Positions 6,163 to 41,965 of a DNA stretch of 64,000 bases are shown here, piece after piece (position 1 is the stretch's first letter; every line of letters starts with the position of its first letter). The translations under genes and the position numbers were made by a program. The notes beneath the pieces were generated by a model, which was not told the DNA's origin, did no database searches, and worked only from the letters and a program-made list of their open reading frames with translations. This DNA is from an uncultured Eubacteriales bacterium (lineage in GTDB: Bacteria > Bacillota > Clostridia > Oscillospirales > CAG-272), in NCBI GenBank assembly GCA_934446065.1, contig CAKSDP010000003.1, positions 35,349 through 99,348 of the forward strand, given 5' to 3'.

Positions 6163-7382
6163 TTGACAAGGAAACGGCGGAAGTTCTTCTTTCCCTTACG
6201 GACGATGAGTCCGTCGGCAAAAGTTGCGATATTGACCGTCTCGTCGAAGCGCTCCGCTTTGGTCTCGCCGTAAATGACGCCGCCCTGTGCGATCAGGCGC
6301 TTTGCCTCGCCCTTGGAGGGAGCCATTTTTCCGACGACGAGCAGATCTGCGATACCGATCTTGCCGTCCGTGAAATCGGAGGCGGAAAGCTCGGTCGTGG
6401 GCATATCCTCGGACGCTCCGCCTGCCGCGAACACGGCTCTTGCCGCCTCAAGTGCGCGGTCTGCCTCGTCTTTGCCGTGGATCATCGCGGTCACCTCATA
6501 CGCAAGCTTTTCCTTTGCGCGGTTGATATCGCTTCCGTCGAGGTGCTCGTACTCGGCGATCTCCTCGAGCGGCATGAACGTCAGCATCTTCATGCAGTTG
6601 ATGACGTCGGCGTCGGCGATATTTCTCCAATACTGGAAGAACTCGTAGGGGGAGACTCTGTCCGCGTCGAGCCAGAGTGCGCCCCTCTCGGTCTTACCCA
6701 TCTTCTTGCCCTCGCTCGTGAGCAGGAGCTTGAACGTAAGTCCGTAGACATCGCGTCCGGTCTTGCGGCGGACAAGCTCGACGCCGCCGATGATGTTCGA
6801 CCACTGGTCGTCGCCGCCCATCTCGAGCGTGCAGCCGTAATCCTGATTCAGGCGGTAGAAGTCGTAGCTCTGCATGGTCATATAGTTGAACTCGAGGAAG
6901 GTGAGTCCGGAATCAAGGCGCGACTTATAGCACTCCGCGCCAAGCATTCTGTTGACGGTGAAATGCGGGCCTACCTCGCGGATATAATCAATATAATTCA
7001 TTCCGAGAAGCCAGTCGCCGTTGTTGACGAACAGAGCCTTTCCGTCGGAGGTGTCGATGAATCTGCCCATCTGAGCCTTGAGGTGCTCGATGTTGTTCGC
7101 GATCTCCTCCTTGGTCATCATACGGCGCATATCGTTCTTACCCGAGGGGTCGCCGATCATGGCGGTACCGCCGCCGAAGACCGCGATCGGTCTGTGGCCG
7201 GCTCTCTGCATATGTGCCATTATCTTCATCTGGATAAAGTGACCGATGTGGAGGCTGTCCGCCGTGGGGTCAAAACCGATATAGAACGTGGTTCCCTTGC
7301 CGTCGAGCAGCTTCTCGACCGCCTCCTCGTTCGTGCACTGCGCGATCATTCCTCTGTCTTTGAATTCCTTAAACAAGCTCAT
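6159..7382 (-). CDS. tyrS: tyrosine--tRNA ligase
   Basis: Class I HIGH (SLHIGHF) and KMSKS (KMGKT) motifs; C-terminal S4-like domain; 407 aa. Confidence 0.9.
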   Translation of the reverse strand: MSLFKEFKDRGMIAQCTNEEAVEKLLDGKGTTFYIGFDPTADSLHIGHFIQMKIMAHMQRAGHRPIAVFGGGTAMIGDPSGKNDMRRMMTKEEIANNIEHLKAQMGRFIDTSDGKALFVNNGDWLLGMNYIDYIREVGPHFTVNRMLGAECYKSRLDSGLTFLEFNYMTMQSYDFYRLNQDYGCTLEMGGDDQWSNIIGGVELVRRKTGRDVYGLTFKLLLTSEGKKMGKTERGALWLDADRVSPYEFFQYWRNIADADVINCMKMLTFMPLEEIAEYEHLDGSDINRAKEKLAYEVTAMIHGKDEADRALEAARAVFAAGGASEDMPTTELSASDFTDGKIGIADLLVVGKMAPSKGEAKRLIAQGGVIYGETKAERFDETVNIATFADGLIVRKGKKNFRRFLVK

Positions 7383-7430
7383 TTTTTCACTTGGGGCATA
7401 CGCCCGCCTTTCCTTGTATTGTATATAGAT

Positions 7431-9119
7431 TTAATTTTTTGTGTTTTTCATGCCGTCGAGCATTTCCGCTGCGGCGGCTCTTTGCGCATCCGTTATATCG
7501 ACGCCGCCGATTATGCGGGATATTTCCCTGACGCGGCCGTCGCGGTCAAGCTCCTCGACGGTGCTTTCGGCTCTGCCCGAGACCTCGGTCTTGCGTATGA
7601 ACATATGATGATCGGCGAGGGATGCGATCTGCGGCGAATGTGTGACGCAGAGCACCTGTGCGCCGTCCGCGAGAGAGCGCAGCATACGCCCCATCTTCTC
7701 GGACGTACCGCCGGAAACTCCGGCGTCGATCTCATCAAATATATACGTATCTGCGGGATGCTTCTCGGCAAGAGCGCATTTCAGCGACAGCATGGCGCGC
7801 GCCATCTCGCCGCCCGAGGCACAGCGTCCCAGCTCTGCCGGAGGCTCGCCGGGGTTTGCAGATATCATAAACGTGACGTCGTCGCGGCCCGAAGCCGAAA
7901 ATCCGTCATGCTCGCCTGCGGCGGGGACTATTCTCACAAGGAACCGCACCTTAGGCATATCAAGCTCGGTCATATACGCGCACACCTTTGCCGACAACTC
8001 ATCTGCGGCGGCGCGGCGGCGCGCGGTAAGCGTATCCGCGATCTTCATTGCAGCCGCCCTCAGCTTCTCATAATCACGTTCAAGCTCATCTATAACGAGG
8101 TCGCTCGATTCGAGTCCGTCGAGGCGGGCTGCTGCGTCGGCTCTGAATTTCTTTATCTCGGCGATCGTTGCGCCGTACTTATTCTTCAGCCGATCGATCT
8201 GCCTCAGTCTCATTTCGGCGGCGTTTATCGTCCGCTCCGGATCGTCGTCCGTATCTATCACCGCTGCGGCGTCCTCAGCCATACCGATAAGCTCATACTT
8301 CATATTTTCAAGCCTTTCGGCGTACTCGTCCGCCTTATCCATCACGTCGCTCATCTGCCTGAAAGCGGCGGCGGCTCTGTCGATAAGGTACGGAGCCGAG
8401 CCTTTTTCAGAATCGGACAGCGCACGCGTTATCAGCGTGACGTGACGCGCAAGCTTGTCGGCGGCTCGCGCCTTTATGAGGATGCGCTCGAGCTTCTCGC
8501 ACTCGGCGTCATCCGAAAGCTTGGCTTTGTCGATCTCCTTTATCTGATACGACAGGATGTCGCTCATCATCGCTTTTTCCTTGATGCTCTCGCGGAAGCG
8601 TGCAAGCTCCGTCCTGTTGTCGAGCAGCTTGCGATAGAGTACGGAATACTCGTCCACGAGCGCTTCTGTCTCAGCATACTCGTCGAGCAGGCGCAGGTGG
8701 ACGGATCGGTCGGACAGGGCGCGGCTGTCGCTCTGCCCCGATATTCCGAGAAGAAAATCCGTCATCTCGCGCAGCGCCGCGATCGGCACGCTCTCGCCGT
8801 TGACCTTGGCGCTGCTCCTGCCGTCCGACGTAAAGCGGCGCACGATCTCGATCTCGCCGTTCTCGTCGGCTGCAAGCGACAGTCTCTCGGGCAGCGATTT
8901 TTTGTCCGCAACATCGAATATTGCACGCACGCTTGCAACCGTTTCGCCGCTACGCACCATATCCTTGGATGCTCTTGCACCGGCGATAAGCTCGAGGCTG
9001 TCGATAAGTATTGATTTTCCGGCGCCGGTCTCACCGGTCATGACGGTGAAGCCGTCGGAAAACTCAATATTCACAGACTTCGCAACCGCGATATTCTGTA
9101 TTGAAAGTGCGCGAAGCAC
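7431..9119 (-). CDS. recN: DNA repair protein RecN
   Basis: SMC-like ATPase: Walker A GETGAGKS at N-term, long coiled coil, signature/Walker B near C-term; 562 aa; conserved position after argR. Confidence 0.9.
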   Translation of the reverse strand: MLRALSIQNIAVAKSVNIEFSDGFTVMTGETGAGKSILIDSLELIAGARASKDMVRSGETVASVRAIFDVADKKSLPERLSLAADENGEIEIVRRFTSDGRSSAKVNGESVPIAALREMTDFLLGISGQSDSRALSDRSVHLRLLDEYAETEALVDEYSVLYRKLLDNRTELARFRESIKEKAMMSDILSYQIKEIDKAKLSDDAECEKLERILIKARAADKLARHVTLITRALSDSEKGSAPYLIDRAAAAFRQMSDVMDKADEYAERLENMKYELIGMAEDAAAVIDTDDDPERTINAAEMRLRQIDRLKNKYGATIAEIKKFRADAAARLDGLESSDLVIDELERDYEKLRAAAMKIADTLTARRRAAADELSAKVCAYMTELDMPKVRFLVRIVPAAGEHDGFSASGRDDVTFMISANPGEPPAELGRCASGGEMARAMLSLKCALAEKHPADTYIFDEIDAGVSGGTSEKMGRMLRSLADGAQVLCVTHSPQIASLADHHMFIRKTEVSGRAESTVEELDRDGRVREISRIIGGVDITDAQRAAAAEMLDGMKNTKN

Positions 9120-35899: not shown

Positions 35900-36988
35900 A
35901 TGAGAAAAATGCTATCACTATTTCTTGCAGCGGTTATGATAATTTTGGCTGTTCCGATGACCGCAGTCACAGTCTCGGCGGAGACGGACGGGTTCTACAC
36001 TTACAGGATCGCCGACAGACAGGCGATCATAACCGGCGTGGACAGAACCATCAGCGGAAACGTAACGATCCCGGACAAGCTCGGCGGCTATCCCGTGACC
36101 GAGATAGGTGTGCGGGCATTCTACAAATGCACAAATCTCAAGAGGGTCACTGTGCCGGGCAGCGTGAAAGCGATAGGCGACTACGCGTTTATGGACTGCT
36201 CGAACCTCACGGGGCTTGTGATCCTGAAGGGAGTAACGAGCATCGGCAACAGCGCGTTCTGCAACTGCTTCGCTCTCACAAGTGTGACTCTCCCGGACAG
36301 TGTCACGATCATCTCGGATTTTGCATTTGAAGCCTGCAAAAATCTCAAAAGCATCACGCTTCCGAACAGTGTCACAACTATCGGCGAATACGCCTTCGGC
36401 TTCTGCATAAGCCTTGAGAATATAGACATTTCCGAACGTGTGACGTCTATCAGCACGGGTGCCTTTTACGACTGCGCAAAGCTCACGGACATCGCGCTCC
36501 CCGCAAGCGTCGTTGCCATCGGCAGAAATGCGTTCACGGACTCTGGGCTTGAGGATATATACTACCCCGGAAGCAGCGACAGCTGGTACGGCATTGACAT
36601 ACATAGTGAAAACACAACATTGAACAAGGCAAATGTTCACTTCAGCATTACAGACCCCTCGACGCATTACAAGTACCGCGAAAAGCAGCCGGGAATGTAT
36701 GAGGAGGGCGAACGCGGCTACTACTGCTCCTGCGGATTTACAAAGAATGTCGAAGTGCTCCCCGCACTGAGCGGAACTGCTTACAGTTACAAGGTACTTG
36801 ACGGCGAAGTTACAATCACCGGCACCACAAAACACCCTGAAAACATAGTAATTCCAAGCACTATCGACGGATATCCGGTAACGGGCATTGCGGACAGAGC
36901 ATTCAGGGGGAACCGCGAAATTAAAACCGTGACGATCCAGTCGGGCGTAAAGAGTATCGGTAAGGAAGCATTCAACGGTGTCACATAA
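35900..36988 (+). CDS. secreted leucine-rich-repeat (BspA-type LRR) surface protein, N-terminal part; terminated by in-frame TAA inside a repeat unit
   Basis: Signal peptide MRKMLSLFLAAVMIILAVPMTAVTVSA; repeated about 23-aa units ...C.NL..I.IP.SVT.IG..AF.. Confidence 0.8.
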   Translation: MRKMLSLFLAAVMIILAVPMTAVTVSAETDGFYTYRIADRQAIITGVDRTISGNVTIPDKLGGYPVTEIGVRAFYKCTNLKRVTVPGSVKAIGDYAFMDCSNLTGLVILKGVTSIGNSAFCNCFALTSVTLPDSVTIISDFAFEACKNLKSITLPNSVTTIGEYAFGFCISLENIDISERVTSISTGAFYDCAKLTDIALPASVVAIGRNAFTDSGLEDIYYPGSSDSWYGIDIHSENTTLNKANVHFSITDPSTHYKYREKQPGMYEEGERGYYCSCGFTKNVEVLPALSGTAYSYKVLDGEVTITGTTKHPENIVIPSTIDGYPVTGIADRAFRGNREIKTVTIQSGVKSIGKEAFNGVT

Positions 36989-38632
36989 ATGACGGACATT
37001 ACGATTCCCGACAGTGTTACGAGTATTGGGAATTATGCGTTCTCCGGATGCCCAAAACTTCAGAGTATGATCATTCCAAAGGGCGTAACGAGCATTTCCG
37101 ACGGTATGTTCTACAACTGTTCGGAACTTACGGACGTTACTGTCCACGATAATGTAATAAGCATTGGCGCAAAGGCATTTTACGGTTGTTCAATTCTCTC
37201 AGGCATCGCTATTCCCGACAGTGTTACGAGCATCGGCGAGAAGGCTTTCTGCTTTTGTTTACGTATTTCAAGCATCACAATACCCAAGTCGATGACAAAC
37301 ATCGGAGAATATACATTTTCCTCCTGCACCGGTCTTACGGACATTACGATCCCGAGCAACATAACAAGCATCGGTAATCATGCATTTTTAATGTGCACAA
37401 ATCTTACAAGCATCACTATTCCCGACAGCGTGACAAGCATCGGTATGTATGCATTCAAAGAATGCACAAGCCTTCAAAGCATCGTCATACCAGACAGTAT
37501 AACAAGCATTAGCCGTAATATGTTCGATGGCTGCTCAAGCCTTTCAAGCATTACTGTACCGAGCGGAATAACGGAAATCGAGGTATGTGCATTTCAAAAT
37601 TGCTCAAGTCTTGTTAGTTTCACCATACCCGATGGGTTGACAATAATCAATTCGTCTGTCTTTTCCGGATGCACAAATCTCTCAAGTGTAATCATACCCG
37701 ATAGTGTGACAGAAATTGATGGTAATGCATTCGCCGAATGTTCAAGCCTTGCAAGCATAACGATACCAAACAGCGTGACATATATTGGCTATTCCGCATT
37801 TATTGGCTGCTGCAGTCTTACAAGCATTACAATACCCTATGGCGTAACGGCGATACAAGGCAGCACCTTCGAATCCTGCACAGGTCTCGTAAACATCACC
37901 ATTCCAGACAGTGTAACGGGTATTGGTATGTCAGCGTTTTACGAATGTTCAAGCCTTGTAAGTATAACATTACCCGATAGCATAGAATATATACACCCTC
38001 AAGCATTCTACGAGTGTGCAAATCTTGCAAGCATAACGATACCCGACGGCGTTTCCACCATCTATAGCTACACATTTTCATACTGCAAAAATCTTACAAG
38101 TATCACTATTCCCAAAAGCGTAAAGTTCATCCGTATGGATGCGTTCGGAAAATGCGCAGACCTTAAAGATGTATACTATGCCGGAAGCCGCAAGGATTGG
38201 GAAAATATCGAGATAGAAGAACGCAACGAAGACTTTATTGACGCTTTCGTTCACTACAACATATCGGACCCCGAAGGTCACTACGAGCTTGTAACCACAC
38301 CTCCCACCTGCACGAAAGACGGACGTAGCATTGAGGTTTGCCCCTGCGGACATTCAAAAAATGAGCTCACAATCCCGGCGACCGGTCACAAGTACGAGAA
38401 CGGTACGTGCACGGTCTGCGGCGAAGCAAAGCCCGATGTGATACTCGGTGACGCAGGCGGCGACGGCGCGGTCAGGATCGGTGACGCGATAACGATTCTC
38501 AAGCACGTTGCGGGGTGGCAAGGAATCACAATTGACACCGACACCGCCGACGTGGATGCAAGCGGCAAGGTCGATTTGAACGACGCGATACTTGTTTTAA
38601 GGAAGATCGCCGGATGGGCTGTGGATTTCTGA
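36989..38632 (+). CDS. LRR protein C-terminal part with type-I dockerin; same frame as the upstream ORF, separated only by TAA (probable single disrupted roughly 910-aa gene)
   Basis: At least 17 more LRR units then dockerin duplicate Ca-binding segments GDAGGDGAVRIGDAITILKHVAG and DVDASGKVDLNDAILVLRKIAG; ATG 36989 immediately follows TAA 36986-36988. Confidence 0.8.
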   Translation: MTDITIPDSVTSIGNYAFSGCPKLQSMIIPKGVTSISDGMFYNCSELTDVTVHDNVISIGAKAFYGCSILSGIAIPDSVTSIGEKAFCFCLRISSITIPKSMTNIGEYTFSSCTGLTDITIPSNITSIGNHAFLMCTNLTSITIPDSVTSIGMYAFKECTSLQSIVIPDSITSISRNMFDGCSSLSSITVPSGITEIEVCAFQNCSSLVSFTIPDGLTIINSSVFSGCTNLSSVIIPDSVTEIDGNAFAECSSLASITIPNSVTYIGYSAFIGCCSLTSITIPYGVTAIQGSTFESCTGLVNITIPDSVTGIGMSAFYECSSLVSITLPDSIEYIHPQAFYECANLASITIPDGVSTIYSYTFSYCKNLTSITIPKSVKFIRMDAFGKCADLKDVYYAGSRKDWENIEIEERNEDFIDAFVHYNISDPEGHYELVTTPPTCTKDGRSIEVCPCGHSKNELTIPATGHKYENGTCTVCGEAKPDVILGDAGGDGAVRIGDAITILKHVAGWQGITIDTDTADVDASGKVDLNDAILVLRKIAGWAVDF

Positions 38633-38642
38633 GCGATAAGAC

Positions 38643-38677
38643 AAAAAATGCTGTTACTTTCGTAACAGCATTTTTTC
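38643..38677. terminator. bidirectional intrinsic terminator (perfect 8-bp stem, A-run/T-run on both sides)
   Basis: AAAAAAT-GCTGTTAC-tttc-GTAACAGC-ATTTTTT; sits 11 nt after LRR-dockerin stop and just after the stranded copy of the DUF2156-gene 3' end. Confidence 0.75.
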
Positions 38678-38804
38678 TATTGTTTTCTCAGCAGCAGAAC
38701 ACGGTATACTTCTTCAGCATTTTCACCGGGTGCAGAGAGGATTTTGACTGCCGCAATCCGGGGATGCCCATATCCTCTTCCCTGTTCACGAACTTCACGT
38801 CGGG
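38657..38804. repeat. direct repeat copy A (stranded 3' fragment of DUF2156-like gene: last 38 codons plus 3' flank)
   Basis: About 96 % identical to 41029-41176 (5 mismatches, 1 indel); minus strand encodes ..PDVKFVNREEDMGIPGLRQSKSSLHPVKMLKKYTVFCC*. Confidence 0.85.
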
Positions 38805-39079
38805 ACGGAAACACAAATGAGCGAACGGCTTAGTTCGCTTTCAATGTTCCGTGCCGATGTATATACAAGTCTTAAAACTCAAAAGGTAACTGCTTATGAG
38901 AAGCAGATGCTGTGTGTGGTGCTGTCTTTCAAGCGACAGGGTGACAGTAGTAACTGTCGCGGCACTTGGTATTCAGTTTTTACCCGACCTCGGTCGGCAG
39001 TCTTATTATACCATGTGCAGGGAATTTTTGTTAAAGCGGGCGCATAAAGTATATGGATAACGGGAATACTATTCCGTTT

Positions 39080-39129
39080 CGGCGTAAGCAAAGACACCGC
39101 CGAGAGCAGTTATAGTGCTTGCTCTCGGC
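39080..39129 (-). terminator. intrinsic terminator of the sigma-fusion gene
   Basis: 12-bp perfect stem CCGCCGAGAGCA/TGCTCTCGGCGG (39095-39106 / 39118-39129) followed on minus strand by TGTCTTTGCTT. Confidence 0.55.
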
Positions 39130-39139
39130 GGTAGTTCAA

Positions 39140-40822
39140 TTATATGATCAAATATGCTCCCAGCATCTGTTTGTCATTATCCTTATCAAAGGTTAAATAA
39201 CCTTGTCTGACAGCCTCTTCCAAGACTGCGCCGCGCATAGCAAAAACATTTGCACAAGCGTGATCGATTTGGAATTCATCTTCTTTAAAAAAGTCGGGAA
39301 TTTCTTTATAGATCTGCTCGCGGCAGAACAAATAATGTCGTGTAGCAATCTCTGCTGCTTTACAACGAAGTGCCTCAAACTCTTTGCGTGCATCCGGGGG
39401 CATTTTGCGTGACTTATCCCTATACATAACCATGATAGTCGGAACATATCCCTCATCTGTGCTTTTAATATATCCGTATGTTTCCAATCTTTTTAGTATA
39501 GTCTTGTCTACATCTGAGCTATTACCATCAGCAACTGCCACCATTGCTTGACCGTCTGCATAATTAAGAAACGGAGGCGTCCTATCTTCAATTCCGCCAA
39601 ATTCAAACCTGTATTGACGGAAATAAATTTCAGGCAGATCTTTCTCATCGGGATTTGACACACAACCGCTTAGTCCGACAAAATTCGGCTTGCTGCCGAG
39701 ATAATTTTCCATGCCGAGAAGATCCCATTCTCCTCCGTCGGGACGAAGAGTATGTCCCCAAGAACCGATATTGGTAACCTCTGCCGCATTTTTATTAAAC
39801 GGTTTTAGCGTGTAGGAATTGACAGCATCCGTTTCTGTCATAAGCAGTGCCCATTTCATATCCTCAAACGACTGATACCCCTCATGCCATTTCGGACAAT
39901 TATCGTTTCGCCACTTGATATCATATTCCATGGCTTCTATTACAGCTTTTGTGAGTTCAGGGGTAATTCCGCGCAAATATGCGTAAATCTTTTCCTGCGC
40001 TTCTGCACTTACGATGAAGATATTTGTTTCGTATTGATTCCCGTTTTTCTTCATTAAGGTGGCTTGCGCAAGCGCCGATAGTTCTTCTTCCATATACGGA
40101 AGAGCTACCCCAACCTCCATTGCCAGCTCTTCTGCTGTAGAGGGGTTTCTATAAGCTGCAAGCAGAATGTTTTTGCAGAGCAAACGCGAAATATAATTCC
40201 ATGGTTCACCGCTTTTTCCTACCATTCCGTTCATAACAAACGCAATGTTTTGGGGGTTATAACTAAGCTTTCCGAATTCTCTTGCCATATCCATACCTTC
40301 TTTCAATATGATTCTTGCACGGTGAAGTCTTTGCTGAACCGTACTGATCGAAAGAGAGAGAGATGATGCAATATCACGAACGCTTTTGCTTTCTATATAA
40401 TAGGCAACGACGATATTGCGATAATCGCTTTTTATGAACGCCAACTCTCGCCGAAGCAGAGCCATTTGCTCTGTATGTATTATTTCATCAAGGATGTTTT
40501 TGCTTTCATCCTCAACCTCATAATCGCCGATATCGGAACCGGTTACCGACTCGTTTCGATTATGCTTTACAGTTGCCCATACGGAATAACGATTTCGCGC
40601 GATCTGCCATACCCACGCCGAAAAACTCGTTGGAATCGCCCCTCTGTTCAAAGCCGTTATAATCTGAAGCGCGATATCTTGCGTCAGACCTTCAGCTTCA
40701 ACATTGTTTCCTGTCTTCTTCAAGCAAAAATAAAACAACTTTTCCATATAGTTTTCAGTAAATTCATTGATAAGCTGATCGCACATTCGGTTCGTTTCTT
40801 GCATTTTCTCGCCTCCTTTCAC
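39140..40822 (-). CDS. ECF-type sigma-70 family sigma factor fused to a roughly 370-aa soluble C-terminal domain of unknown function
   Basis: Region 2 (EAEGLTQDIALQIITAL, FSAWVWQIARNRYSVW) and region 4 HTH (SVRDIASSLSLSISTVQQRLHRARIILKE) within first roughly 190 aa; remaining roughly 370 aa hydrophilic, no TM segment, no recognisable motif; 560 aa; low-GC codon usage. Confidence 0.65.
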   Translation of the reverse strand: MKGGEKMQETNRMCDQLINEFTENYMEKLFYFCLKKTGNNVEAEGLTQDIALQIITALNRGAIPTSFSAWVWQIARNRYSVWATVKHNRNESVTGSDIGDYEVEDESKNILDEIIHTEQMALLRRELAFIKSDYRNIVVAYYIESKSVRDIASSLSLSISTVQQRLHRARIILKEGMDMAREFGKLSYNPQNIAFVMNGMVGKSGEPWNYISRLLCKNILLAAYRNPSTAEELAMEVGVALPYMEEELSALAQATLMKKNGNQYETNIFIVSAEAQEKIYAYLRGITPELTKAVIEAMEYDIKWRNDNCPKWHEGYQSFEDMKWALLMTETDAVNSYTLKPFNKNAAEVTNIGSWGHTLRPDGGEWDLLGMENYLGSKPNFVGLSGCVSNPDEKDLPEIYFRQYRFEFGGIEDRTPPFLNYADGQAMVAVADGNSSDVDKTILKRLETYGYIKSTDEGYVPTIMVMYRDKSRKMPPDARKEFEALRCKAAEIATRHYLFCREQIYKEIPDFFKEDEFQIDHACANVFAMRGAVLEEAVRQGYLTFDKDNDKQMLGAYLII

Positions 40823-40940
40823 TCATATAGTGTGGTATTTATTGATTTGCTGACAAAAATATTTTCTTTGTTTTTTCTATTATATCACAATGTTTGCTAA
40901 GAATAAATTGGTTCCGGCAAGGTTACAAGATCTGTTGAAG

Positions 40941-40988
40941 AAAAAGCAAAAGAGAGTACAGCCTTTCGACTGTACTGCCTTTTGTTTA
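40941..40988 (-). terminator. terminator of DUF2156-like gene in its current (post-insertion) context
   Basis: Hairpin AGTACAG-cctttcga-CTGTACT (40955-40976) flanked by A/T runs on both strands. Confidence 0.5.
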
Positions 40989-41028
40989 TCCTATTCGGTT
41001 TTCATATTTCTCCGTTAAGGACATCCCG

Positions 41029-41176
41029 CTTTTCGTAACAGCATTTTTTCTATTCTTTCTCAGCAGCAGAACACGGTATACTTCTTCAGCATTTTCACCG
41101 GGTGCAGAGACGATTTTGACTGCCGCAGCCCGGGGATGCCCATGTCCTCTTCCCTGTTCACGAACTTCACGTCGGG
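41029..41176. repeat. direct repeat copy B (3' end of intact DUF2156-like gene)
   Basis: See copy A; continuous with ORF 41060-41965. Confidence 0.85.
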
Positions 41177-41965
41177 CGCGTCAAGGCTGCGCAGGTATCC
41201 GGTCGAGAGATACTGGTACGCTCCCGGCATATCCTGCATGGCTTTCTCAAAATGCACGAACACCGTATCGCCGACGATCTCCCCGACGGTAAAGCCCGCA
41301 GTCTCGCCGCCCGCAGTGAGGATCGCGCCGGACAGCCCAAGTTCATCCCAATGCTCCGCGAGGTCACATATCGCGGAAAGCTCGGCTGCCGCCATTTTCG
41401 AGCCGTCGGAATAAAGCTCGTCCCATTTTGCGACGAAATCTGCCATCATCGCGGCATTTGTGACGGTCATGGGGATTATTTCGGCGTCCGGATGCATTTT
41501 GCCGAAGCGATTTACGAAGTTTTTCTGCCCGTGGAACTTTCTGCCGGACAGCTCCGATATTTCGGTGCGGTCGTATACGTAGTCCGACCAATCCGGCTCT
41601 TCCGAGGGAAACACGACGTCGAACACCTCCCCGAACATGGGGACATTCTGCTCCGCGACGAAGCAGAAATACATATTCATACCGCGCCCGTGGGCGTATT
41701 CGCCGATCGCGGCAAGCGCTGTGCGCGGGTCCCCGCCGATCGGGAAAGAGAACATCTCCGTTCCCTCGCACGAGGCGAGAAGCACGACGGAATCGCCGCA
41801 GCGCGCCCATTTCGTATCGTAATAGCCGCGCCACAGGAATGTGGTTCCGAACAGATTATCGCAGATGAGCGGTATCCCCGCCTCCGCTCTCTCAAGATTA
41901 TCACGCTCAAAGACGGCACGAAGATATTCGATATCAGCGTATTCGAGCCTCTTAAACTCAAGCAT
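41060..41965 (-). CDS. DUF2156-like protein (MprF/LysX C-terminal-domain-like, GNAT-fold acyltransferase family), function unknown
   Basis: 301 aa; family assignment from memory of the YdaK/DUF2156 pattern (FVAEQN..., LRSLDAPDVKFVNREEDMGIPGLRQSK); moderate certainty. Confidence 0.45.
   Translation of the reverse strand: MLEFKRLEYADIEYLRAVFERDNLERAEAGIPLICDNLFGTTFLWRGYYDTKWARCGDSVVLLASCEGTEMFSFPIGGDPRTALAAIGEYAHGRGMNMYFCFVAEQNVPMFGEVFDVVFPSEEPDWSDYVYDRTEISELSGRKFHGQKNFVNRFGKMHPDAEIIPMTVTNAAMMADFVAKWDELYSDGSKMAAAELSAICDLAEHWDELGLSGAILTAGGETAGFTVGEIVGDTVFVHFEKAMQDMPGAYQYLSTGYLRSLDAPDVKFVNREEDMGIPGLRQSKSSLHPVKMLKKYTVFCC

Follow-up and report, generated by a model that had tools for sequence, protein, structure and literature searches.

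The stretch analyzed here is a 64,000-nt window of contig CAKSDP010000003.1 (positions 35,349 to 99,348 of the forward strand) from an uncultured Eubacteriales bacterium of the CAG-272 lineage, and it carries an AT-rich insert between the convergent ends of two genes. To the right of the insert lies an intact DUF2156 gene (41060–41965, minus strand; LPG_synthase_C/DUF2156, 301 aa, Pfam 3e-39), and to its left a gene with LRR_5 and dockerin domains, here called the LRR-dockerin gene (35900–38632). Two direct repeats bracket the insert, repeat A at 38658–38804 (147 nt) and repeat B at 41031–41176 (146 nt), separated by five substitutions and one single-base indel. A preliminary description made from the sequence alone had drawn repeats of about 148 bp at 38657–38804 and 41029–41176; the repeats are real, and only their starts had been set 1–2 nt too far to the left. 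Alignment and translation bear out its statement that each copy consists of the last 38 codons of the DUF2156-like gene and about 30 nt of 3′ flank, that is, the stop codon and 29–30 nt past it. Both copies lie on the minus strand and encode the identical peptide PDVKFVNREEDMGIPGLRQSKSSLHPVKMLKKYTVFCC*, with all four coding differences (4/4) synonymous and four of the five differences in 147 nt clustered. Copy B is the functional 3′ end, continuous with the intact gene as previously described, while copy A is a stranded fragment of 38 codons, stop codon and 30 nt.

Copy A adjoins an intact bidirectional intrinsic terminator, AAAAAATGCTGTTAC-TTTC-GTAACAGCATTTTTT (38643–38676), whose 15-pair stem folds at −25.9 kcal/mol (z = −6.8) and which is shared with the convergent LRR-dockerin gene. 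At copy B, the left arm of this hairpin has been exchanged for insert DNA and a different, element-borne hairpin at 40955–40976 (minus strand) ends the DUF2156 gene, as had been noticed at the outset; this second terminator now stops DUF2156 transcription and insulates the inserted element. A 68-aa open reading frame at 38614–38820 (plus strand), called as a gene in public assemblies (e.g. L004, 11985–12191), is antisense to copy A and the terminator and almost certainly spurious.

The insert itself (2226 nt between the repeats) has a GC content of 42.1%, the lowest of any 2.2-kb stretch in the window (0.08th percentile). Its contrast with the flanks, part of the preliminary description, holds on the DUF2156 side and is weaker than claimed on the left, where the LRR-dockerin gene is itself fairly AT-rich (46% GC, with a GC content at third codon positions, GC3, of 0.50). 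A single large gene occupies the insert, as described, with a GC3 of 0.40 compared with 0.66–0.75 in neighboring host genes. This cargo gene (39140–40804, minus strand, 554 aa) joins a sigma factor of the extracytoplasmic function (ECF) type, with sigma2 and sigma4 in residues ~12–170, to some 380 aa at the C-terminus; read from the alternative GTG start at 40822 the protein would have 560 aa, and gene callers use the 554-aa start. TIGR02937 matches residues 12–169 (8e-20), Pfam Sigma70_r2 and r4_2 are both found, and the N-terminus matches the SigW structure 5wuq at 2.4e-10. The arrangement is that of an ECF (group 4) factor, sigma2 and sigma4 only over the full ECF profile, and these profile matches identify the product as a genuine ECF sigma factor with an uncharacterized C-terminal extension. 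Pfam gives nothing significant for the 377 aa of this C-terminal region, and the AlphaFold model of the fusion is poor, with a mean predicted local distance difference test (pLDDT) score of 56.7. The fusion has ~1900 homologues, many at 77–97% identity. Its promoter and N-terminal sigma domain (window 40250–40863) are kept at 72–89% nucleotide identity in L039, L041–L047, L049–L051 and L054 (L numbers designate the contigs and loci compared), the C-terminal regions at these loci being unrelated or just 45–51% identical overall, and L048 combines the same element ends with another C-terminal half; the family thus seems to be modular, with C-terminal domains swapped.

No recombinase is encoded in the insert, in agreement with the preliminary description, and tblastn found no relative of the large serine recombinase introduced below within the 64-kb window. 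The sigma fusion was considered as a recombinase or transposase in its own right and rejected: its N-terminus is a full ECF domain, its C-terminus has no DDE, HUH or recombinase signature, and its relatives carry a separate large serine recombinase. Between the cargo gene and repeat A lies a non-coding part of the insert (38805–39139, minus strand), in which the sigma gene terminator (~39096–39110) and other terminator-like hairpins are found. Searches of the window for tRNAs and against Rfam (gathering threshold) were empty, giving neither a tRNA or tmRNA target nor a known non-coding RNA in this 335-nt structured region. An element with a non-coding RNA, resembling the insertion sequences IS200/IS605 or IS110, was prompted by the subterminal hairpins and dropped given the inverted-repeat ends and recombinase-bearing relatives described next.

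The true ends of the insert become visible in other copies. A scan with the sigma fusion across species-representative genomes returned 38 loci, among them L018 (UMGS1312), which belongs to a different genus (its CdaA is just 60% identical to that of the window) and shares the element at a nucleotide identity of 96.6%. Their alignment extends over exactly window 41033–38797, after which L018 continues for another 105 nt, reading ...GTTTCCGTyyCGAyGT|ATGTGCGAG...TTCTCCGTCAAGAACATCCGC, and terminates in the inverted partner of the left end, GCGGGATGTCCTTAACGGAGAA. This left terminal inverted repeat, or att half-site, is an exact and unique match in the window at 41008–41029 (minus strand) and is conserved at the ends of ~22 independent insertions; the opposite end in complete copies, TTCTCCGTyAAGAACATCCGC, is its inverted partner. 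We refer to the complete element of 2.34 kb as E. A complete E is present in L001, in the species and at the very site of the window with 99.9% identical flanks, as well as in L075 (at another site) and L060. Both ends are present in L001, L018, L060, L075, L068 and L091 and form imperfect terminal inverted repeats. The complete copies (L001, the L018 group and L075) are flanked by AA(A) and carry neither a DUF2156 fragment nor a long flanking repeat; around the L018 element, no long direct repeat was found. Because the copies in L018, L001 and L075 run 105 nt further to an inverted end, the 38805 end of the insert reflects the loss of these last 105 nt. The window copy, E(delta), is thus a truncated miniature integrative element (38805–41029, minus strand) that has the left end only and lacks the right terminal inverted repeat or att half-site, in contrast to the two ends of a large-serine-recombinase element.

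At its surviving end, the element abuts an A-run (TTTT on the plus strand, 41030–41033) that holds the recombinase crossover and belongs to the loop of the native terminator, of which the right arm remains at 41034–41050. The junction at 41029/41030, which falls in the GAAA loop of the terminator native to DUF2156 and the LRR-dockerin gene, is the genuine site-specific one, and the terminator at 38643–38676 is the attB-like palindrome of the element family. L018 and L063 carry AAA(A) on both sides of the element, as a short core with a precise empty site would leave. Complete E occurs at 96–97% identity in at least three sites of different hosts, which implies mobilization in trans. In L001, complete E is directly followed by a second related element, E2, and the same E–E2 pair is found elsewhere in L075; the joined form of the element ends is seen at this E–E2 junction in both contigs. 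E2 maps to L001:3748–3876 and L075:2547–6454, the L075 copy bearing a TetR-like gene and genes for membrane proteins, and the pair seems to travel as a composite.

The other boundary has a different anatomy. The last 8 nt of copy A (38797–38804) read ACGTCGGG, or CCCGACGT on the gene strand, a sequence common to the subterminal region of the element and DUF2156 codons ~263–265. The sequence is ...GTTTCCGTCCCGACGT|ATGTGCGAG... in complete elements, ...GCGCCCGACGT|GAAGTTCGTG... in the gene and ...GTTTCCGTCCCGACGT|GAAGTTCGTG... in the window; in wider context, complete copies have GTTTCCGT-CCCGACGT-ATGTGCGAG, the gene GACGCG-CCCGACGT-GAAGTTCGTG and the window GTTTCCGT-CCCGACGT-GAAGTTCGTG. From these three readings it follows that the join falls inside the 8-nt microhomology and that 38804/38805 is no element end. 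By this comparison, what lies past the junction, namely the last 147 nt of the gene and the intact terminator, can only have come from an insertion-free copy of the chromosome.

These two junctions bear directly on the reading first proposed for the locus, in which an integrase-type element, mobilized in trans, targets the DUF2156 3′ end and brings a replacement end, with the repeats as attL and attR. Direct repeats do bracket AT-rich foreign DNA, their differences are all synonymous, as two functional gene ends would show, empty sites exist, and the circle-like contigs discussed below hold one hybrid repeat. The 147-bp repeats are not attachment sites, however: the 38804/38805 boundary lies 105 nt inside the element at an 8-nt microhomology, which marks illegitimate and not site-specific recombination. 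Copies in other hosts and sites, as well as that in L001, end in inverted repeats and AA(A) and contain no DUF2156 segment, and the recombinase of the family is a serine recombinase with a 2–3-bp core and terminator-loop targets. Nor is the DUF2156 gene the target as such, since the ~22 different insertion sites have in common a terminator-like palindrome and not a gene. We accordingly give this reading almost no credence. The accompanying suggestion of a decayed stump of a larger island, or of an element mobilized in trans, was right in essence, as the insert derives by internal deletion from a large-serine-recombinase element.

The full-length relatives support this derivation. A degenerate left-end pattern retrieved 35 genuine metagenome loci, corresponding to ~22 distinct insertion sites. 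The 11.8-kb element in L063 contains defense-like helicase genes, an HTH_36 gene and, adjoining the right end, a gene for a large serine recombinase of 584 aa, recognized by its domains (Resolvase, Recombinase, Zn_ribbon_recom and DUF4368). Fragments of the HTH_36/recombinase module occur in L074, L083, L048 and L068. E positions 1996–2309 match L063 8181–8429, and also L074, L083 and L048, in the region just upstream of the HTH_36 gene; the non-coding part at 38805–39139 is homologous to this region upstream of the HTH_36/serine recombinase module. The 2.34-kb E is therefore an internal-deletion derivative of a full-length element, in which both ends, a cargo gene and the upstream portion of the recombination module were retained. 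DUF4368-bearing large serine recombinases form a “multi-targeting” TndX-like clade (PMC10083194), and clostridial elements of the TnpX type have 2-bp flanking repeats and in some cases sigma-factor cargo (PMC3158075).

The insertion sites point to a defined target preference. L063 is flanked by AAAAAACACCCCCATGGG-AAA|element|AAA-CCCATGGGGGTGTTTTT, a perfect bidirectional terminator split in its loop, and its rebuilt site forms a perfect hairpin with the loop AAA. Against shuffled controls, rebuilt empty sites score z = −7.0 (L063), −6.8 (window) and −4.5 (L091), while the rebuilt L018 and L068 sites show a weaker terminator-like fit. An A-run of at least 5 nt at −35 to −8 from the crossover is present in 16/22 left flanks and at 6.8% of control positions (p = 1e-14), and the right half-site of the element has an A-run at the same distance as those of the targets. 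The attP of the family, composed from the end sequences, would read TTCTCCGTTAAGAACATCCGC-AAA-GCGGGATGTCCTTAACGGAGAA once the element ends are joined. Taken together, these sites identify the loops of terminator-like palindromes as the apparent targets of the family. About 50 nt inward of the left end, each family member further carries a terminator hairpin, the sequence of which differs between members. Limited literature searches found no description of terminator-loop targeting combined with a replacement terminator.

Several observations on family members stand apart from this argument. L063:457–8065 looks like defense-system cargo: it encodes a 918-aa protein that matches nothing in Pfam, together with a DEAD/Helicase_C/MZB (MrfA Zn-binding) protein of 1616 aa. 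In L048, the open reading frame at 6236–7456 lies just upstream of an element left end; about 95 of its N-terminal residues resemble the start of a mobilization relaxase (judged by eye) and the rest a secreted glycoside-hydrolase-like protein, so that it looks like the wreckage of an older mobilizable element. A link to viruses was considered and dropped, as a motif scan of viral contigs gave only chance-like matches in an unrelated phage gene.

Exact-protein look-ups in human-gut metagenomes yielded ~30 conspecific contigs, most of which share the arrangement of the window. In L105, L111 and L112, the LRR-dockerin stop, the intact hairpin and the end of the uninterrupted DUF2156 gene are contiguous, and the hairpin serves both genes. 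An empty site had been named beforehand as the thing to look for, and its presence in the same species removes the objection that all relatives might carry the insertion; the insertion is therefore a segregating polymorphism, and the horizontal acquisition of the insert is supported. Copy A differs from the L105/L111/L112 allele at 1 of 147 positions and is evidently the relic of an empty-site allele, in support of the earlier proposal that the two repeat copies stem from different alleles of the gene end. L103 is also empty and has a variant hairpin: at L103:5745–5985 the loop is inverted (GCTGTTAC-GAAAA-GTAACAGC, compared with GCTGTTAC-TTTC-GTAACAGC elsewhere) on an unchanged stem. Since the crossover core is in the loop, future insertions there would be reversed, and the inversion could be the footprint of a past event. 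L015 stops at 8906–9001, 95 nt past the stop codon of a 77%-identical DUF2156 relative; its sequence there (GCGGATGCATAAAACCGTAT...) is faintly like the element's left end and may represent another insertion at the equivalent site of a sister species.

In all of the occupied contigs, 20-odd from at least three lineages, copy A meets the element at one and the same junction, which speaks for a single origin. Comparison of the window with L104 shows one difference in 1891 nt of the E interior amid flanks that differ by 2–5%; it follows that the truncated element was passed between lineages in recent times, presumably through homologous recombination in its flanks. Repeat haplotypes have been reshuffled as well, copy A of L005 being Aleft/Bright and the gene end of L001 Bleft/Aright, and divergence is seen in copy A of both L104 and L113, in L113 with a His-to-Leu change. 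With this much reshuffling and divergence, the repeat haplotypes do not tell donor from recipient.

The whole is best explained, and in our judgment quite probably, by a site-specific insertion followed by an illegitimate join to an empty-site template together with a homologous exchange. In the first step, which comparison with relatives shows, a recombinase-less miniature E of ~2.34 kb carrying the sigma fusion, from a family that DUF4368-type (TndX/TnpX-like) large serine recombinases move, entered the loop of the DUF2156/LRR-dockerin bidirectional terminator through site-specific recombination. The junction at 41029/41030 records this event, and the terminator of E has since taken over at DUF2156. 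In the second step, suggested by the junction anatomy, the subterminal CCCGACGT of E would have been joined illegitimately to the identical or near-identical DUF2156 codons ~263–265 of an empty-site copy, whose source may have been a different strain or, with lower probability, a sister chromosome free of the insertion, with the other crossover being homologous. The last 105 nt of E, including the second recombinase-binding end, and the sequence beyond would thereby have been replaced by the last 147 nt of DUF2156, the intact terminator and the LRR-dockerin gene. The expected outcome is a 147-bp direct repeat in the pattern of homology-facilitated illegitimate recombination (HFIR), in which an illegitimate junction at 3–10 bp of microhomology accompanies one homologous crossover (PMC3240628). 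The microhomology at the locus falls in this range, both as the 8 nt of CCCGACGT and as the 4 (+3) nt shared with the empty-site alleles. As a consequence, the window element would no longer be excisable by its recombinase, and its spread or loss within the species would proceed only via homologous recombination, through the flanks or between the repeats.

A tract that runs from within the LRR-dockerin gene through the terminator to the end of copy A (36989–38804) is 99.6% identical to L105, with both of its flanks at 96–98.5%. It is supportive of HFIR and not decisive. Several points weigh against our explanation. The same tract could result from later allelic replacement, since homologous DNA brought in from an empty-site donor is bound to end within copy A, so that the original donor is not proven. 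The empty-site alleles on record read CCCTACGT, which reduces the microhomology from 8 to 4 (+3) nt. The Bleft/Aright hybrid gene end of L001 is unpredicted by the simplest version of the model. The recombinase is unseen in the 64 kb of this genome that were examined, mobilization in trans being deduced from other copies. Finally, three contigs (L008, L010 and L011) look like a circle or tandem junction of 2372 bp which, if real, would favor a circle and a single crossover.

These last contigs run from the right end of the insert through a Bleft/core/Aright repeat into its left end, L010 closing at exactly 2372 bp, and their circular permutation passes through the 147-bp repeat and not through the element ends. 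They would fit a course in which an L001-like chromosome underwent deletion or circularization between CCCGACGT 8-mers 2372 bp apart, and the resulting circle, holding the DUF2156 3′ end and the truncated E, entered an empty-site genome by a Campbell-type single crossover in the 146-bp homology. Such a crossover duplicates the 146-bp segment automatically, and the circle may still form between the repeats. The hybrid repeat of these contigs is the gene end of L001, and circularization followed by single-crossover entry is a documented fate of incoming DNA (PMC3240628). The same contigs could, however, arise in assembly: a strain with B as (Bleft, Aright) and A as (Aleft, Aright) shares 121 identical nt between its repeats, which would mislead assemblers at k ≤ 119–121, and L009 matches the k = 55 unitig that a collapsed repeat would give. 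L008, L010 and L011 all break in the same AT-rich stretch, and L008:1–42 is an untrimmed Nextera transposase adapter (TCGTCGGCAGCGTCAGATGTGTATAAGAGACAG) left in a public metagenome contig. Moreover, L105-like sequence lies to the left of the insert but not in the DUF2156 body on its right, so that an extra recombination event would be needed. The contigs are thus ambiguous between a circle, a tandem duplication and a repeat-collapse artefact, and we regard this course of events as unlikely, though it deserves more weight than the one that follows.

An unequal exchange within one cell, between a sister chromosome that had just gained E and one still empty, could have produced the same junction anatomy at CCCGACGT with no foreign DNA involved, and the reshuffled repeat haplotypes in the population (A of L005 as Aleft/Bright, B of L001 as Bleft/Aright) would agree with differences between the repeats having arisen later by allelic recombination. 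This course would need a narrow time window, and it sits poorly with the persistence of complete E and the second element at the site in the same lineage (L001) and with the clustering of four of the five differences in 147 nt, which points to different alleles. We therefore hold it to be very unlikely and retain the illegitimate join to an empty-site template as the preferred explanation.

The LRR-dockerin gene to the left is itself of note, since a nonsense codon at 36986–36988 (TAA, compared with AAA in L105 and L104 and AAC in L103) interrupts it in the window. The split gives open reading frames of 362 and 547 aa in place of the single protein of 910–911 aa in other lineages, and the codon marks the left border of the tract in which the window and the empty-site lineage are 99.6% identical.

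Among known systems, the family most resembles Tn4451/Tn4453 and elements of the Tn5397 type (TnpX/TndX). The likeness extends to the Resolvase, Recombinase, Zn-ribbon and DUF4368 protein at one end of L063, to imperfect inverted-repeat ends that would form a dyad-symmetric attP when joined, to a very short flanking direct repeat (AA/AAA) with many target sites, and to sigma-factor cargo, known there as well (PMC3158075; PMC10083194); kinship of the L063-type recombinase with TnpX/TndX is judged by domain content, not phylogeny. In contrast, the window copy has no recombinase and one end only, and the present family differs in its terminator-loop targets and the replacement terminator ~50 nt inside the left end. 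By these features, the window copy classes as a non-autonomous derivative, not an autonomous member, of serine-recombinase elements. Complete E (L001, L018, L075) keeps both ends without a recombinase, as do cis-mobilizable elements (CIMEs) and mini-elements resembling miniature inverted-repeat transposable elements, but E has a large cargo gene, and the window copy, having lost one end, is unlike CIMEs no longer even cis-mobilizable. With phage or integrative and conjugative element integration at gene 3′ ends, the locus shares direct repeats of a gene end around AT-rich foreign DNA and an intact gene; it differs in having repeats off the element ends, no integrase, and a repeat that is absent from other copies. 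The likeness to HFIR, described in Acinetobacter baylyi, Streptococcus pneumoniae and Pseudomonas stutzeri and in E. coli conjugation, lies in the short GC-rich microhomology junction with a homologous other side that joins foreign to resident DNA. Here, however, the process is deduced from natural genomes of uncultured gut Clostridia and not seen experimentally, and it yields a 147-bp duplication of resident sequence, not the usual deletion alone.

The whole case is assembled from known processes. Two readings would go further, one taking the family as an undescribed terminator-loop specialization of multi-targeting serine-recombinase elements, the other taking the truncated copy as a “homology-hitchhiking” cassette; we offer them tentatively and think them rather unlikely. 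If the specialization is true, the A-tract/stem/T-tract symmetry of a terminator would mimic the attP of the family, and the replacement terminator would make insertion nearly neutral for both neighbors. If the hitchhiking is true, the truncated copy with its captured 147 bp would loop out as a 2372-bp circle and re-enter empty sites by single crossover, independently of a recombinase. For annotation, the locus cautions that an attL/attR-like, integrase-less island bracketed by repeats can be a secondary scar, the true ends of which are visible only against other copies. It also offers a natural microhomology junction that would have immobilized a mobile element, with empty, complete and truncated alleles segregating and directly comparable. 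A serine-recombinase family with a preference for terminator loops, together with 2.3-kb trans-mobilizable miniatures that move an ECF sigma fusion between genera, is a candidate tool and model, and may be of interest for the study and engineering of multi-targeting large serine recombinases.

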